Shown in pieces: positions 448 to 56,073 of a stretch of DNA of 64,000 nt (positions within the stretch are counted from its first letter, which is position 1; every line of letters begins with the position of its first letter). Position numbers and translations under genes: made by a program. The DNA comes from Eledone cirrhosa (Eukaryota). The notes beneath the pieces were generated by a model. It made no database searches and was not told the DNA's origin. It worked only from the letters and a program-made list of their open reading frames with translations. The stretch spans positions 12,276,001 through 12,340,000 of the forward strand of contig OZ024751.1 in the NCBI GenBank assembly GCA_964016885.1. Direction: 5' to 3'.

Positions 448-603
448 GAAAAGTATAGAAATGATTGTAGTGAAAGGCTAACAGTATTCCATAATATATA
501 AGTGACTATAGCGTCAAAATGGGAAAATAGTTAACATAATATATGGGAAAGATAATTCAAACTCAATTCAAAAAGAATCAGGATATAGATTTATCCAACA
601 GAA

Positions 604-685
<82 letters not shown>

Positions 686-740
686 AGTATATATATATAC
701 CAGTATAATAAAATATATATATATATATATATGTATATAA
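1..740. repeat. Compound (TA)n/(CT)n microsatellite with recurring ACCAGT interruptions and a short unique insert (446-600)
   Basis: Directly visible; ACCAGT recurs about 7 times inside (TA)n. Confidence 0.95.
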
Positions 741-741
741 A

Positions 742-1026
742 TAAGAAAGGAATTGTGGTAAGGTTCCAGATGGACCATAACGCACCAGAGTACTCAATAC
801 TTAGGGTAGTAGAGTGGGAAATAGGAAAAAGTATGACCCCGACGGCGGAGCTCAAGCCGTTTCGATGGCTATTTGTGGACTATTTCAGTCCAGAAATAGC
901 CGTCGAAACGGCTTGAGCTCCGCCGTCGGGGTCATACTTTTTCCTATTTCCCACTCTACTACCCTAAGTATTGAGTACTCTGGTGCGTTATGGTCTATCT
1001 GGTTCCTTACCACAATTCCTTTGTTA
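742..1026. mobile_element. 285-bp near-perfect palindromic element in (TA)n; probable PLE/retrozyme-like 3' end with a mirrored hammerhead half
   Basis: Arms 742-881 and 887-1026 are reverse complements with few mismatches around loop ATTTC. Related segments occur at 14451-14561, 16275-16346, 36818-37131 and 55921-56060. Confidence 0.8.
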
Positions 1027-1046
1027 TATATATATATATATATATA

Positions 1047-5947: not shown

Positions 5948-6046
5948 ACTCCTGAGGATACGGAGGTTCTCGCCTGTCTTTCCAGAGGGTCATCACAAAA
6001 GCGTTTATCTGATGACCCTGTAAACACACAGGCGAAACTTCAGAGT
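5948..6046 (+). ncRNA. Degenerate hammerhead-like motif with an upstream mirror copy
   Basis: CTGATGA 6009-6015, stem II CCTGT/ACAGG, then GAAACTTC and a downstream AATAAA; 5963-5995 is an imperfect inverted copy of 6010-6041. Confidence 0.4.
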
Positions 6047-14426: not shown

Positions 14427-14683
<257 letters not shown>

Positions 14684-16120: not shown

Positions 16121-16346
16121 ATCCGCAATAATGATAAGGAACGGATCCCACATGCGCAACCCCATACAAATCAGCATACTGATTGCGGACTTAGTAAGAA
16201 TGACGAGGATCGTCTCCGGCGGTTTCGACAGTGAGATGCGAACTCGACTAGCTGTCGAAACGACCGGAATCTAGTCTACTACCCCAAGTATCGAGTACTC
16301 TGGCGCGTTATGGTCCACCTGGTATCTTACCACATCTTCTTTGTTA
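16102..16346 (+). mobile_element. Hairpin-rich segment plus the conserved tail of the 742-1026 family
   Basis: Imperfect inverted repeats at 16102-16209 and 16216-16267, then the tail TCTACTACCCCAAGTATCGAGTACTCTGG...CTTTGTTA(TA)n. Confidence 0.7.
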
Positions 16347-16625
16347 TATATATATATAGCGTTTTTAAGGTATTGTTTTCAAGAGACTACTTAAAAAACG
16401 TCATTTGTTTACAAGGTACGTACACTGAGATAAGCACTACATTGTATGTGATAAACACTGTGATAAGCACTACACTGTAGAAGCACTACATTGTATGTGA
16501 TAAACAATGATTAATATTTAATATCATTATAAAGCTTTTAAAAAGTATGTATTCAATGATAATGAACATTTAAAATTTAGTATTTTTATAAACTCTGAAA
16601 CTTGTTCTGTATTTATTATTTAATA

Positions 16626-20565: not shown

Positions 20566-23500
20566 ATGGCCGTATTAAGAGTAGGATGTTTAAATGTTCG
20601 AGACCTGGGATCGTTCAGGAAGCAGGGTCACCTGCTCAACGACCTCAGGTCTATAGAAATGGATGTAATTGCCGTCAGCGAGACCAGGATTTCCGACATG
20701 CGCGCACTAGCCCCCATTTTCGACGACTATCAGATCTTTGCATCTGTTAGCCGGCCGGGAATGGGAGGCGGGGTGGCAGTGCTGTTTAGGAAAGGCCTGG
20801 ATCTCGAGGTAAGGTCGATCTTCCGGGACCCGGACGGGAAGTTGGTGGTCCTGGACGTGAACAATAACGAAGGTGGTGCCTTTAGACTGGTTGCCGTCTA
20901 ATCTTTTACTGGGGCAGGACGGCCGGACTTCTTTAGACGCCTGGAAGCCTTTCTGGGTACGTCTCGCCCTTTACTGTTAGCGGGGGACTGGAACGGCATC
21001 TTAGACGCACGCTGGGACTGTGTGGGAGTATCCGATAGGAGCGGGGGGTGCAAAAGCCTCAAGAACCTGATCAGCCAGTTCCAACTGTCTGATAGGTACA
21101 GACTAGATTTCCCTAATGCGCCAGTGTGGACCTGGGCTAACCGCATAGTGTCATCTAGATCGTATATAGACAGGATATTCATTAGGAAAATAGACAGAAA
21201 TAGTGTAAGCTGTCCACGTTTTGAAACGGTCGCCTATTCAGATCACAAGTTTGTGATCTGTATGGTCGACCTAGATAAGACGCGTAGGTTAGGACCTGGT
21301 TACTGGAAGCTAAACATGTCATTTCCGGCACGTAAGGCTTACAGGGACCAGGTCAACAATTTAGTTAAGAAAAAGTTGACAGGGGTAGTCGTCAACAATA
21401 GATGGTGGGGGGCTCTCAAAAGAGAGATTAGAGTAATGTCGATAGAGTTTAGCAAAGAAGTAGCGTTAGAGAAAAATAGAAAGGAGGGGAGTTGGTAGAA
21501 AAGTTAGACGAGGCTATTGGTAGTGGCATTGCAACTGACGTGCTAGCGGCGAGAATGGCATTAGACCATTTCTTCAATGCGAAACACAAAGGTTGCCTTG
21601 TCAGAGCTAAAGCGCGTGCTCTGAGAAACGAGGGAACGAAAGCTGTTCGATGGGCCCGCGTGGCAGAGGCGCAGCGTGGTAATAAAACCACGATTCAGTC
21701 TTTGACGGACCGAGACCGGCACGTGTTGAGCGATTCCAAGAGGATGTGTGAGGCCTTTCGCCAACATTTTGCTTGGTTGTTCGGGGGAAGTGGCGGGTCA
21801 GAGATAGTGGCGGACTTCCGTCCCTACCTCGATGGCTTGCCACAACTCTTGACGGCTGACGTTGGGCGCTGCGAAAGTCCAATTACTACAGCCGAGATTC
21901 AGGATGCCCTTGTCGGCTGCATGAGGCGCAAGTCACCCGGTTTGGATGGTCTGCCCTATGAGCTTTACGTAAATATTCCAGACTTATTCTCCAATCTCCT
22001 CGAAGCCCTTTACTGCAACTGGCAGCAAAACGGGAGTATTCCCAGTTCTGTGAGCCGGGGCGTAGTGACGCTGATAAGGAAAGACGAGAACAAGAGGGAC
22101 ACATTAGACAATTTCAGGCCCATAACTCTGCTCAACACAGAGTTTAAGATTTTGGCCAGGGTGTTAGCGAAGAGGTTGGCGTTTGTCGTCGGGGATTTCG
22201 ATGGGGAGGCGCAAACTTGCGCAGTTCCAACCAGGTGGATACACGACAACCTCCACCTAATGCGATACATCATAGAGAGGGTAGGGTGTAAACCTGGCTT
22301 CGGTGGGGATCTGATCAATTTAGATCAATCGAAAGCATTCGATAGGGTCGACCATCGTTACCTGGAGGCTGTCCTCAAGGCGGCTGGCTTCGGCCCCGTC
22401 TTCAGATGCTGGATCGCTGCAATGCACAGCGGCACCTGCTCGATGGTCAAAAGTAATGGCCACCTCTCGGAACCGTTTCAGGTCTCCCGATCGGTCCGTC
22501 AAGGGTGCCCTCCCTCCTCTCTTCTGTACGTATTGACTGTCGAGCCTTTACTGCGGAAGCTGGAGCTGTTGCAGGGCATCCCGCTCGAACCGGGACGCGG
22601 AAAGGCTGTGTCGGCTTATGCGGACGACATCAACGTGATGGTGTCTGACACCTCAGAAATCGAGGTGGTCGGCAACTTATTGGAGGAATATGAAAGTTTG
22701 ACGGGAGCAAAACTTAACCCGGAAAAGTCGGTGGGCTTGCAACTCGGCACCTGGAGAGGCAAGTCCATGCTGTCCAATAGGGTCGTTAGGCGCTGGACGG
22801 ACGGACCGGTAAAGTTGCTAGGGGTTTGGTTCGGGCCAGACCTCCAGGTGGATAAGAATTGGGACGAGGTGACGGGAAGGGTAGCCAGTCTCACCCAGAA
22901 ATGGGCTGGGAGGAAGCTATCACTGAAAGGTCGGGCGGAGGTGGCGAAAGCGTGCATCGCGTCTGTCATCTACTACCGTCTAACCGTCGTCCCTTGCCCC
23001 CGTTCGCGCCTCGCCATCTTGGAGCGGCTCCTCTTCAAATTCTTGTGGAGGGGTCAGGTTCCGCTGGTGAGGCGGTCCATCTGCTGCCAGCACCCTCTAC
23101 GGGGAGGGCTGGGCATGCCGTGGCTAATGATGCGCAGGTACGCGCTAAGGCTGCGGCATCTCCAGATATTCTGCCTAAACGGTGAACAGGTGTGGTCATC
23201 GTTTATCAGACGGGCCTTCCGCAGCTCGTTTCTTTGACTGAGCTGCAGTCCTGGGTCAAGAAGAGACCGAGACTGGGTGACTGGTATCTGGAATGTTGAC
23301 AGGCACTCACTGCCCTCTACCAGGCGGGCAATGCGGTCAGTGGAACTTCCACTCTCGAGTTCTATAGAGGATTAGTGGTGGGCAAGTGCGACGACGCACT
23401 CAGAGAGGCTCTGAGAGTCGACGAAGTCGAACTAATCAGTCTGTACCGGAAGACGTTCGAGCCGGGGACGATGGATAATTTCCAAAAATCCCTCGCTTGG

Positions 23501-23983
23501 CAGTGCTACCGGGGGCACTGCCGGTTCGAGATAAACTCTACAGGCACGGAAGTGCTGTCAGACGGATCTGCCCGAGATGCTCGCAGAGCGACGAAACCGT
23601 TCTGCATGCACTCGTCCAGTGTCCGTGCATTACTAACTTGTGAAGTTATTTTGAACAGCTGTTCTCGCGTGTAGAACGGATCCGGCTATCGGCCGAGTCC
23701 ATAGTGAAGATCGACCCACCGCCTTCTTTTGGCCAGGTAGGGTAGGCAATTTTCCTCTGTCTGGTGGCAGTAGCGAAAGAGGTTGTATGGTGGACGAGGT
23801 TGAAATGACTGAAGACAGACACTTTTCTCTTCGGCCAATTCCTCATCAACTTTTTCAAGTTTCACTTGGAAAGGAAGGTGAGGGGGGAGAGAAGTGCTGC
23901 CCTCCAGTACATTTGCTGAAAAGTGGGTAAATGTGGCGAGAATGGCCCGTGTGAGTGGGCCTACTCTGGTCATGCGGCTGTAG
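20566..23983 (+). pseudogene. LINE ORF2: APE endonuclease, reverse transcriptase and C-terminal Cys motif (disrupted)
   Basis: GCLNVR, VSETR, GGGVAVL, AGDWN, YIDRIF, SDH, KSPGLDGLP, FRPITLLN, DQSKAFDRV, RQGCP, YADD (22617-22628); stop at 20899 and frameshifts near 21490 and 23225. Confidence 0.95.
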
Positions 23984-24264
23984 GTAGGTAAAGTTGAGGA
24001 GGAGAGCGGTGCCCTTCCAGGGTGCTCTCGAAGCGTCGGGTCGTTCAGGACTGGTGGGGTACCTGGCGAACCCTAGGTGGTCATCCCCCCCTATTGGGGA
24101 ATTTTTTCTTGTTGTAATTTTCTTGTTACTTTATTGTTACTTAGTTATTGTTACTTTGTTATTGTTATTCATATTATTTACTCGATTTTTCTGTAAAACC
24201 CACTGTCCCTGTCTTTTGTATTGTCCCCTATATGTCGGCCCTTGTGGCCAATAAATGAAATCAA

Positions 24265-31951: not shown

Positions 31952-33935
31952 GATTTCATTTATTAGCCACGAGGGCCGACATGTAGGGGACAATACAAAG
32001 ACAGGGACAGTGGGGGGTTTACAATAAGGTCGAGTAAATGTGCACAATGGCAAGACTAATTTAACAATGAAGATATAAAAATATAAAATAAACTATCCAT
32101 AAATATAACAAAATAAATTCCCCGATAGGGGGTGGACGACCCTGGGGTGACTCGGGTACCCCACCAATCCTGAACCACCCTGCGCTTCTAGAGCACCCAG
32201 GGAGAGCACCCCTCTCCTCAAGTTAGCTAGCCTATAGGCGCATGGTCAGAGTAGGCCCATTCTCACGAGCCATTCTCGCCACATTCATCCAGCTTTTAGC
32301 AAATGTACTGGGGGGTAGCACTTCTCTCTCCACCCTCACCTTCCTTTCCAGGTGAAACTTGAAGAAGTTGATGAGGGATTGGCCGAAGAGAAAAGTGTCT
32401 GTCTTCAGTCCTTTTAATCTGGTCCACCATATAACCTCTTTCTCAACTGCCACCAGATAGAGGAAAATTTCCTGCTCCTCCTGACCTATTGAAGGCGGCG
32501 AATCGATCTTCACTAGGGACTCGGCCGATAGCCGGATTCGTCCACACGCGACAGTAGCTGTTCGACATAACTCCACTAGTCAGCAAAGCACGGACATTGG
32601 ACAAATGCGGGCAGAATGGTTACGTCCTTCTGTGCGCATCTTGGGCAGATTCGTCTGACAGCACTTCCGTGCCTGTAGAGATTATCCCGAACCGGCAGTG
32701 CCCCCCCCCCCCCCCCCCCCCCATTACCACTCCAAGCGGATGATTTCTGGAAAATATCCATCGTCCCCGGCTCGAAAGTCCTCCGGTATAGACTGGTCAG
32801 TTCGACTTCGTCAAGGCCCAAAGCTTCTCCTAGTGCGTCATCGCACTTGCCCACCACTAATCCTCTATAGAACTCGAGAGTGGAAGTTCAACTGATCGCA
32901 GTGCCCGCTTGGTAGAGGGCAGTGAGTGCCTGGCAACATTCCAGGTGCCAGTCACCCAGTCTCGGTCTTTTCTTGACCCAGGACTGCAGTTCAGTCAAAG
33001 AAATGAGCTGCCGAAAGGCCCGTCTGATAAACGGCGACCACACCTGTTCACCATTTAGGCAGAATATCTGGAGATGTCGCAGCCTCAACGCATGTCTGCG
33101 CATCATTAGCCACGTAATGCCCAACCCTCCGCGTAGAGGGTGCTGGCAGCAGATGGACAACCTCACCAACGGAACTTATCCCCTCCACAAGAATTTGAAG
33201 AGGAGCCGTTCCAACTTGACGAGGCACAGACGGGGGCAAGACACGGCGGTCAGGCGGTAGTAGATGAAGGACGCGATGTACGCATTCGCCACCTCCGCGC
33301 GACCTTTCAGTGATAGCTTCCTCCCAGCCCATTTTGGGGTGAGACTGGCTACTCTGCTCGTTATCTCGTCCCAATTCTTTTCCACCTGGAGGTCTGTTCT
33401 GAACCAAACCCCGGGCAACTTTACCGGTCCGTCCGTCCAGCGCCCCAGGTTCCGAGCTGCAAGCCCACCGACTTTTCCGGGTTAAGTTTGGCTCCTGTCA
33501 ACCTTTCATATTCCTTCAATAAGGTGCCGACCACCTCGATTTCTGAGGTGTTCGACACCATCACAGTGATGCCGTCCGCATAAGCCGACACCGCCCTTCC
33601 ACGTCCCGGTTCGAGCGGGATGCCCTGCAACAGCTCTAGCTTCCGCAGTAAAGGCTCGAGTGTCAATACGTACAGAAGGGATGAGAGAAGGCACACTTGA
33701 CGGACCGATCGGGAGAGCCGAAATGGTTCCGAGAAGTGGCCATTAACCTTGACCACCGAGCGTGTGCCGCTGTGCATTGCAGCGATCCAGCTTCTGAAGA
33801 CAAGGCCGAAAACAGCTGCTTTGAGGACAACCTCCAGATACCGATGGTCGACCCTATCGAATGCTTTCGATTGATCTAAATTGATCAGTGCCCCACCGAA
33901 GCCAGGTTTACACCCCGACCCTCCCTATGATGTAT
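31952..33935 (-). mobile_element. 5'-truncated Tx1/L1-clade LINE copy (RT to 3' UTR)
   Basis: Minus-strand ORFs match 22265-24262 (SRSVRQ, SAYADG, RKLSLKGRAEVAN); (TAA)n on both sides. Confidence 0.93.
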
Positions 33936-34143: not shown

Positions 34144-34323
34144 TACTACTACTACTACTACTACTAATAATAATAATAATAATATACTACTATTATTACT
34201 ACTTCTAATGCTACTATAACTACTATTACATGCATAGGCGCATCTATAGATTCACACATATATACGTACATAGATTCATGTATACATACATATATGCATA
34301 CATATATGCATACATATATTCAT

Positions 34324-34730
34324 GTGTTGTTAGGGACCACACCTTGAAAACCTGTTCTGTTGCGGAGATCAGCTGCCCACTTGATGTAAACATTATCAGA
34401 AAAATACAGGAGAAGGAGGACATCTACGGACCATTGATGAGGAGTTTACAAATCCAGTATCCAAGATACACCTTTAGCTTCATACCCATCGTTATTGGAG
34501 CTAAGGGTTATATACCAACCCGCTTGGACCAAAATATGACTGAACTTGGATTTCCGGACAAAGACCGCAGCTCCCTAATTCATAGTCTACAAATGGCTGC
34601 GATAGCTGGCACCTTCAAGATTTGCAAAACATTCTTGCGATTCAAGGGATGACAATTTCTTTTCTTTTACAACCTTGGCACCGGGAAGGTGGCCGGTCAA
34701 AAATATATACTCGAAATTAAGAGAAAGAGA
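34324..34730 (+). mobile_element. 3' fragment of a restriction-like-endonuclease non-LTR retrotransposon
   Basis: VAEISCPLDVN...KEDIYGPL...FIPIVIGAKGYIP...LQMAAIAGTFKICKTFL, stop at 34652. Confidence 0.8.
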
Positions 34731-36735: not shown

Positions 36736-36815
<80 letters not shown>

Positions 36816-36817
36816 AT

Positions 36818-37129
36818 GTTTAACCCCGTCGGCAGAGTTCAAGCCGTTTCGACGGCTATAGAAATAGCCGACGAAACGGCATCAGCTCTGCCGTCGGTGT
36901 TAAACAATAGATATTTCACTTCATATATATATTTGAGAAAGTATGACCCCGACGGCAGAGTTCAAGCCATTTCGACGGCTATTTCTGGACTCAGTTCAAA
37001 AATAGCCGTCGAAACGGCTTCACCTCTGCCGTCGGGGTCATACTTTCTGCTATTACCTCTCTACTACCCTAAGTATTGAGTACTCTGGTGCGTTATGGTC
37101 CATCTGGTTCCTTACCACAACTCCTTCGT

Positions 37130-37131
<2 letters not shown>
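36818..37131 (+). mobile_element. Two hairpin copies of the 742-1026 family (short 36818-36904; longer 36936-37131 with tail)
   Basis: CCCCGACGGCAGAGTTCAAGCC...GAAACGGCTTCACCTCTGCCGTCGGGG plus the conserved tail. Confidence 0.88.
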
Positions 37132-37169
<38 letters not shown>

Positions 37170-55920: not shown

Positions 55921-56060
55921 TAGAAAAAGAGTCAGGACCCCGACGGCTGAGTTCCGGCCGGGTCTTGAGTCCTTTACTATTACTACCCATTCTACTACCC
56001 AGTATCAAGTAGACTGGTGCGTTATGGTCCACCTGCTTCCTTACCACACTTCCTTTGTTA
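55921..56060 (+). mobile_element. Divergent copy of the 742-1026 family tail with a short hairpin
   Basis: CTACTACCCAGTATCAAGTAGACTGGTGCGTTATGGTCCACCTGCTTCCTTACCACACTTCCTTTGTTA. Confidence 0.8.
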
Positions 56061-56073
56061 TTCACACACACAA

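Follow-up and report, generated by a model that had tools for sequence, protein, structure and literature searches.

Tc1/mariner-type MITEs are short, palindromic elements that are flanked by TA and reach high copy numbers. In LINE-1 twin priming, two primings from the two ends of the target give rise to a 5' inversion with a microhomology joint; the second primer is set at variable internal sites and the two cDNAs are made on adjacent stretches of RNA.

Penelope-like elements (PLEs) of the Hydra clade are recognized, in the available text of PMC8557442, by RWK and DKT motifs, a CxCx5C linker, CxxC and CxH around the E/N and the lack of CCHH; they insert into (TA)n and are generally shorter than 3 kb. 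The same text calls the origin of PLE tandem and inverted structures, and of the one-sided tail, an open problem, for which the published proposals, as far as these sources extend, are self-priming (PMC3846280) and endonuclease resolution (PMC8557442). A Poseidon PLE studied in vitro nicks both strands and extends each of them, and it initiates at two sites inside the RNA, one on either side of the tail; the enzyme is predicted to be a dimer and, according to the sections describing the assay, the top strand and the bottom strand do not differ in start site (PMC11167929). Schistosoma hammerhead pairs lie 100-700 bp apart on opposite strands in the part of PMC4209133 consulted, and a non-LTR retrozyme, as described in the accessible part of 10.64898/2026.07.22.740005, is a head-to-tail tandem of complete hammerhead monomers.

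Here we describe a palindrome in the window, that is, the whole 64,000-nucleotide stretch of DNA analysed, together with its relatives in the genome. Such palindromes are very short insertions, without coding sequence, of a Hydra-clade PLE in (TA)n, in which two 3' ends stand head-to-head, likely through two separate primings and not by fold-back.

The palindrome and its relatives

The palindrome of about 280 bases has (TA)n on both sides. In a symmetry test of 744-1024 around a centre at 884, 134 of 142 positions were complementary, and the next-best centre reached 32%. Its parts are as follows.

601..743, no strand: (TA)n target sequence, left flank
744..881, minus strand: left arm, an inverted PLE 3' end in the long (tailed) form, with its inner end on the stem II 3' strand
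882..886, no strand: filler of 5 nt between the arms, repeating left-arm bases just upstream
887..1024, plus strand: right arm, a sense PLE 3' end in the long (tailed) form
887..904, plus strand: stem II 3' strand of the hammerhead in the parent fold; most arms end within it, 11-23 nt 5' of GAAA
905..927, plus strand: hammerhead 3' core with GAAA, stem III with a near-palindromic loop and the GUC triplet; predicted cut after 927
928..944, plus strand: stem I 3' strand and extension; the base of the extended stem I coincides with the short end, 944/945, after which comes TAT
945..1024, plus strand: tail, 80 nt between the two fixed ends
1025..1046, no strand: (TA)n target sequence, right flank

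The initial annotation read the right arm as a well-formed hammerhead 3' half with a GUC site, and the left arm as its mirror in the place where the 5' half of the core would stand. Both readings were confirmed (GAAA at 905-908, stem III at 909-925, UH at 926-927 and the stem I 3' strand, which is G-rich, from 928). The hammerhead 5' half is missing from the window copy and each strand carries a 3' half only, so that neither strand holds a complete core. The proposed centre at the stem II loop did not stand: the palindrome lacks both the apical loop of the parent and its true stem II 5' strand, and both arms stop on the stem II 3' strand. Compared with the pLTR of the parent copy L269, described below, the left arm is 87% identical over 145 nt and the right arm 89% over 147 nt. 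The filler is probably a templated insertion, and the same centre recurs in several long+short copies in both orientations.

With two long ends, the window copy belongs to a long+long minority of 1-2% and falls outside the long+short rule given below. Its arms share a loop III variant that was found in only 3 of 293 arms, and arm-to-arm copying is therefore possible for this copy: one arm may have been copied or homogenised from the other. Its origin would lie either in two RNAs or in a later event in which one arm was copied onto its partner.

The further copies which the initial annotation had placed at 14531, 36818 and 36936 exist, and two more were found.

14447..14562, no strand: sister insertion, a long arm ending at the predicted hammerhead cut site and joined to an 11-nt short arm (mirror 14447-14552)
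16200..16350, no strand: diverged relative, with the tail as in the window copy and a mirrored centre (mirror 16275-16350)
36811..36905, no strand: older sister palindrome, arms 36823-36858 (minus) and 36860-36900 (plus); the left is a short arm and the right end is unclassifiable
36935..37135, no strand: sister insertion of the commonest short+long type, arms 36940-36991 (minus) and 36993-37135 (plus)
55921..56061, no strand: short+long insertion of an older subfamily with early-stopped arms (mirror 55981-56061)

The parent ORF was not found in the 64-kb window by tblastn. The window also holds decayed L1/Tx1-like LINE ORF pieces (20902-24072 and 33421-33924) and a C-terminal piece resembling a restriction-like LINE endonuclease (34209-34652), all recognized by eye, the former from the translation. 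Next to the palindrome, at 1047-1505, a 460-bp element lies between TA runs, with no second copy among the loci compared. Two diverged inverted copies of an unrelated element of 110-127 nt (1574-1700 and 1777-1887) flank a 76-nt TA run; no further copy of that element was seen among the loci compared.

In the genome (3.0 Gb) we counted 15,251 exact mirrored centres, 32,073 exact arms and 33,710 exact tail motifs; reversed-pattern controls of the centres and arms gave 0. Independent short-read contigs carry the same ends and joints, and the palindrome family is therefore not an assembly artefact; TA loose ends occur in these contigs at 821 and 947, and no piece among the contigs listed spans the whole window copy. 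Contigs of at least two other organisms (runs X5 and X6) contain an arm with the parent-type upstream continuation, and the family is therefore present there. At one locus (L196, C1:15465560-15466029) three short arms follow one another head-to-tail at intervals of about 200-230 bp, the same TA-rich spacer accompanying each; this array is a later local tandem duplication. In one long+long copy (L003, flanks of 1501-1783) the flanking DNA is mirrored too, which suggests that fold-back copying there ran past the element.

The parent PLE and its hammerhead

Among the first 30 exact arms in genome order, 8 were unmirrored and continued into one common upstream sequence, made up of the stem I 5' strand, a core 5' half TTGANAA and the true stem II 5' strand. 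Further upstream these parent arms have 0.7-1.3 kb of 3' UTR and then the end of a GIY-YIG ORF. The palindrome arm is the 3' (pLTR) end of a Hydra-clade PLE. A tandem copy (L269) retains an uninterrupted frame of 786 codons with RT and EN motifs; counted from the ATG, RT motifs lie at 253 and 348, YIG at 606, RWR at 37, DKT at 117, CxCx5C at 572, CxxC at 670 and CxH at 698. It has no CCHH, and its GIY-YIG core contains a single cysteine only. L269 thus has the single ORF, PLE-type RT and C-terminal GIY-YIG of an EN+ PLE, as well as all three features of EN+ PLE pLTRs, namely a partial tandem, an inverted copy at its 5' side and a tail. Its tandem unit of 3,118 bp is slightly above the general Hydra-clade length of <3 kb, and (TA)n flanks nearly all inspected ends, in agreement with the target of that clade. 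We found 2,217 full-length relatives at E<=1e-20. Atlas neighbours carry GIY-YIG/RVT_1 on part of their members; a Pfam-A scan of three ORFs returned 0 families. Placement in the Hydra clade would follow from the motifs and from likeness, judged by eye, to printed Hydra proteins. Neptune was considered as the identity of the parent and dropped for Hydra on the defining motifs (RWR, DKT, CxCx5C, CxxC, CxH and no CCHH).

At the L269 tandem junction the tail passes, again via TAT, into the 5' leader at a point about 95 nt upstream of the ORF's ATG, and both fixed ends are therefore internal to the RNA. TAT comes after the short end and after the long end alike, and a nicked (TA)n end could base-pair with it. 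Two 5'-truncated GIY-YIG ORFs found beside an arm (L029 and L030) belong to other PLE families with Hydra-like motifs and are capped in inverted orientation by the short arm of this family; these are cross-family two-ended insertions.

The core 5' half of the parent has U3-A8 in place of C3-G8, and 7,049 such 5' halves occur genome-wide. The first 100 of these, counted by eye, comprised 74 U3-A8, 24 C3-A8, 2 U3-G8 and 0 C3-G8; 43 complete parent hammerheads, mostly picked by the core pattern, comprised 33 U3-A8, 9 C3-A8 and 1 U3-G8. Stem I has at least 4 bp in 36 of the 43 and GUC is present in 41; stems I and III are kept, and N7 may be any of the four bases. These 43 copies have the three stems, core, 3-8 position, G10.1-C11.1 and UH of a type I hammerhead. 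The minimum free energy (MFE) structure of one copy (L166) has the hammerhead shape (z -2.25, with 5 of 200 shuffles as good), and in another (L175) that shape lies 1.2 kcal off the MFE. In stem II, 3 of 10 pairs are compensated, a figure resting on 2 copies of an older subfamily. Rfam reported nothing at gathering score in the window, and no hammerhead in three parent loci. The C3-A8 mismatched core marks a successful subfamily (L174, L224, L225, L271, L272 and L283), which suggests that cleavage is not required for spread. Long-arm matches diverge exactly at the predicted cut in 495 cases, of which about 70 in 100 were true junctions by eye, a count without a control at neighbouring positions. 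In some cut-site copies both arms end at the predicted cut (14447-14562 in the window), and such arms hint at occasional self-cleavage.

The initial annotation had expected parent copies with a CTGANGA 5' half linked to PLE ORFs, and would have taken the lack of any such half as evidence against its reading. Parents with a hammerhead 5' half downstream of a PLE ORF do exist; their core is TTGANAA, and that test would have misfired. Because the core has U3-A8 and not C3-G8, every CTGANGA search missed the parent. A genome-wide search gave 36 matches, the motif lying within fillers or foreign DNA in the 30 loci inspected; a second pattern gave 9 matches, 7 of them in the antisense of an unrelated LINE ORF, and a third gave 8, which were junctions to other families. 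With the fourth and fifth patterns there were 50 and 9 matches and no parent, and among 212 arm matches examined for CTGANGA the one near-match was a mutated mirror.

Other short PLE-derived repeats in the window carry canonical minimal type I hammerhead motifs, at 6009 (plus), 54218 (plus), 62343 (minus), 39780 (minus) and 50133 (plus); each ends in (TA)n about 100 nt downstream, and none reaches the Rfam gathering score. A tail motif common to other hammerhead families and the present one was considered and dropped, since only 5 of 25 motifs matched, at other distances. Other hammerhead families are also mirrored head-to-head (L081, L084, L086, L087, L036 and L042), with a centre near the 5' side of the core, not at stem II, and their mirrors are sometimes capped by an arm of this family.

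Ends, centres and routes of insertion

The initial annotation took the length of the mirror to vary freely from copy to copy. Instead, there are two fixed outer ends 80 nt apart, a short one at 944/945 and a long one at 1024/1025, and what varies is the inner end of each arm. Among 79 mirrored pairs, chosen neither by likeness to the window copy nor by CTGANGA although in part by a pattern limiting the length of the centre, 67 were long+short, 1 was long+long, none was short+short and 11 had one unclassifiable end; 50 pairs from biased searches were kept apart. Independent choice of ends would give mixed ends in at most 50% of pairs, and 67 of the 68 classifiable pairs were mixed (against 0.5, p 5e-19). 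A set of 100 tail-anchored arms gave 76 long+short, 2 long+long and 22 unpaired or long; long arms without a recognised short partner amounted to 15-22 of 100. The samples come from the first 20 Mb of one contig. By eye, 20 long inverted regions with 0.1-5 kb between cores comprised 13 plain long+short, 4 with a long and an unclassified end and 3 complex cases, with no plain long+long or short+short among the 20. The palindromes are the short end of a continuum of inverted insertions with spacers of 0 to 5 kb.

Most inner ends lie 11-23 nt 5' of GAAA, on the stem II 3' strand before the loop (60 of 76 short arms and 50 of 76 long arms). Of 76 pairs, 19 had a short arm reaching at least 10 nt deeper than the long one and 3 had the reverse (p 0.0009); without the breakpoint artefacts L141 and L304 the counts were 17 and 3 (p about 0.003 by hand). 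In 7 of 76 pairs the long arm is confined to the tail and does not reach the short site, and its short partner extends across the hammerhead 3' half; a second sample gave such tail-only long arms beside full short arms in 7 of 75, and these joints recur in independent short-read contigs, where 788-826 is joined to 884-894. Near-symmetric centres have no depth bias (14 vs 23 at >=3 nt). Later deletions at palindrome centres could have blurred the inner ends. We also considered whether the inner limit reflects a hard RNA 5' end, set by an initiator-like motif or by cleavage upstream; parents that run through the limit ruled this out.

Of 77 centres, 67 were distinct, with a few recurring. In a set of 67 joints, 28 had microhomology, 13 were blunt and 26 had filler, a mixture like that of microhomology-mediated end joining. 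The linker subfamily was identical in both arms of 60 of the 62 classifiable pairs (of 79), against a random expectation of 0.19, and discordant in 2 of 62; some long+long copies also have arms of different subfamilies (L002 and L016), and other PLE families are sometimes capped by an inverted arm of this one (L027, L029, L030 and L036). From the discordant pairs and cross-family caps it follows that two-RNA events happen, and a few percent clearly use two RNAs.

Because the short arm is often deeper, and because of the tail-only long arms and the cross-family joints, two independent cDNAs are needed. The following sequence of steps is inferred from finished insertions in genome sequence. A GIY-YIG/RT enzyme, probably a dimer, would nick both strands of (TA)n, and each DNA end would pair with RNA UAU, the short site serving one end and the long site the other. 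Both primings would probably take place on one RNA molecule; granted two primings, we lean towards a single RNA. The short-site cDNA would lead, and the long-site cDNA would trail and abort more often. Both would usually stall in stem II of the folded ribozyme, through an RT stall and not an RNA cut, and host end-joining would then link the two cDNA 3' ends by microhomology or templated filler. Each centre is probably made anew at insertion, and the products only look like MITEs. The two internal starts and two-strand extension in the available text of PMC11167929 fit this two-cDNA reading; strand-indifferent start sites such as those of Poseidon would not alone yield an obligate long+short rule.

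The initial annotation proposed that a cDNA folds back at the ribozyme hairpin and primes itself. We give little credence to such a general route, in which, at or close to the hairpin, a single cDNA folds onto itself or an antisense RNA acts as its own primer, the short end arises by a cut or a jump to the target at the short site and the centres are revised later. It would account for the agreement of the arms in subfamily (60/62), and there is precedent in what could be consulted of two papers, in which inverted-junction palindromes of PLEs are ascribed to self-priming on an antisense template (PMC3846280) and the tail to EN-mediated resolution (PMC8557442). Private variants shared by both arms of some long+long copies (the window copy, L003 and L006) and the mirrored flanks of L003 also speak for it. 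However, a copied arm cannot exceed the depth of its template, yet the short arm is the deeper in 19 of 76 pairs against 3, and the 14 near-symmetric centres with a deeper short arm also conflict with fold-back. Tail-only long arms adjoin full short arms, a short-primed cDNA would be unable to add the tail, and self-copying cannot bring two different PLE families together as an inverted pair. The native stem II has yielded 0 fold-back products, although 7,049 arms run through stem II and 15,251 short palindromes exist. For the long+short copies fold-back is largely refuted. Another route that we consider improbable takes two separate RNAs from the same active source locus, one for each DNA end, with an asymmetric enzyme dimer forcing one long and one short start. 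In its favour, some pairs are discordant or cross-family, and it makes strand displacement unnecessary; yet several subfamilies are each abundant and only 2 of 62 pairs are discordant, and the excess of early-aborted long arms beside complete short arms better fits a polymerase trailing on a shared template. This route shares its two-priming core with our preferred explanation and is partly counted in our confidence in it.

Least credible, and by a wide measure improbable, is a non-autonomous element that propagates itself, be it as the MITE of a DNA transposon with TA targets or through a short palindromic master RNA that is copied whole. The copies are short, palindromic, TA-flanked and very numerous, and a few centres recur; both flanks are (TA)n, in which a TA target-site duplication is indistinguishable. 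But the ends are unlike, long against short, in 67 of 68 pairs with no matching terminal repeats, the arms are continuous with the ORF of a PLE, which is the parent, 67 of 77 centres are distinct with no common interior, and the spacers form a continuum from 0 to 5 kb. A MITE or master RNA as the main source of the palindromes is refuted, and the retroelement origin that the initial annotation had preferred to a DNA-transposon MITE is upheld.

A broader reading of the two-priming explanation, which we offer tentatively and with slightly less than even expectation, is that twin priming is obligate: one RNA would be copied twice, from two fixed sites, by the halves of a dimer. In this single step all EN+ PLEs would acquire their tail as well as their inverted 5' copy. 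The role of the hammerhead would be mainly structural: the short start would be set by its extended stem I and the RT halted by its stem II, so that most events would end as MITE-like palindromes. If so, some of the sequences annotated as 'MITEs' in invertebrate genomes rich in (TA) would be retroelement dead ends.

Relation to described systems

The family provides tens of thousands of independent insertion products, each short enough to be read whole, and any model has to meet the same rules: one long and one short end, the same subfamily in both arms, independent inner ends and a leading short arm. These rules tie the in vitro two-site initiation described in the accessible sections of PMC11167929 to genome structure and make the open PLE question testable. 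In practice, CTGANGA descriptors and Rfam overlook this hammerhead, and MITE finders would likely misfile its products. Hydra PLEs, U3-A8 hammerheads, inverted pLTRs and tails are already in print in the portions of PMC8557442 and PMC4209133 available to us. We found no report of the coupled long+short rule, of PLE twin priming or of PLE-derived MITE mimics at this scale, in a survey with subscription papers, Repbase and bioRxiv supplements outside its scope; the literature search gave no paper with 'twin priming' together with pLTR, and neither 'palindrom' nor 'Hydra' occurs in the available part of the octopus repeat paper PMC13282606.

In contrast to the tandem of complete monomers that makes up a non-LTR retrozyme, as described in the accessible part of 10.64898/2026.07.22.740005, the present copies are head-to-head half-hammerheads. 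They differ from Tc1/mariner-type MITEs in having no matching terminal repeats, no common centre and a retroelement parent, and from LINE-1 twin priming in having two fixed sites and overlapping cDNAs, which yield a palindrome.

The closest likeness is to the Hydra-clade PLEs in the available text of PMC8557442, which share the single ORF with C-terminal GIY-YIG, RWR/RWK, DKT, CxCx5C, CxxC, CxH, the (TA)n target and a 3' hammerhead; the printed Hydra-1_Obim and Hydra-2_Amil proteins are similar to the L269 protein by eye. Hydra hammerheads are canonical in that text (C3-G8 in Hydra-1_Obim), whereas the present one has U3-A8, a long stem II and a full stem III, and the present family differs further in its unit of about 3.1 kb and its huge excess of ultra-short palindromic insertions. 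The same U3-A8 covariation occurs in the pLTR of the Schistosoma Cercyon PLEs, as far as PMC4209133 could be consulted; these belong to another clade, and here stem III is complete, folding as a monomer is predicted and a quarter of the cores are C3-A8. EN+ PLEs in general, in the parts of PMC8557442 and PMC3846280 consulted, have the same head-to-head inverted 5'-truncated pLTR, a tail on one end only and partial tandems as in L269. Their tail is 30-40 nt; here it is 80 nt, and truncation usually leaves about 60 nt of one half and about 140 nt of the other. Self-priming is proposed in the available text of PMC3846280; our data favour two primings and contradict self-priming for this PLE family. 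Poseidon of Anolis in vitro likewise has two internal initiation sites bounding the tail, an AT-rich target and extension of both strands; its sites, in the sections of PMC11167929 at hand, lie inside the ORF, whereas here they lie in the 5' leader, are each followed by TAT and are coupled within one insertion.
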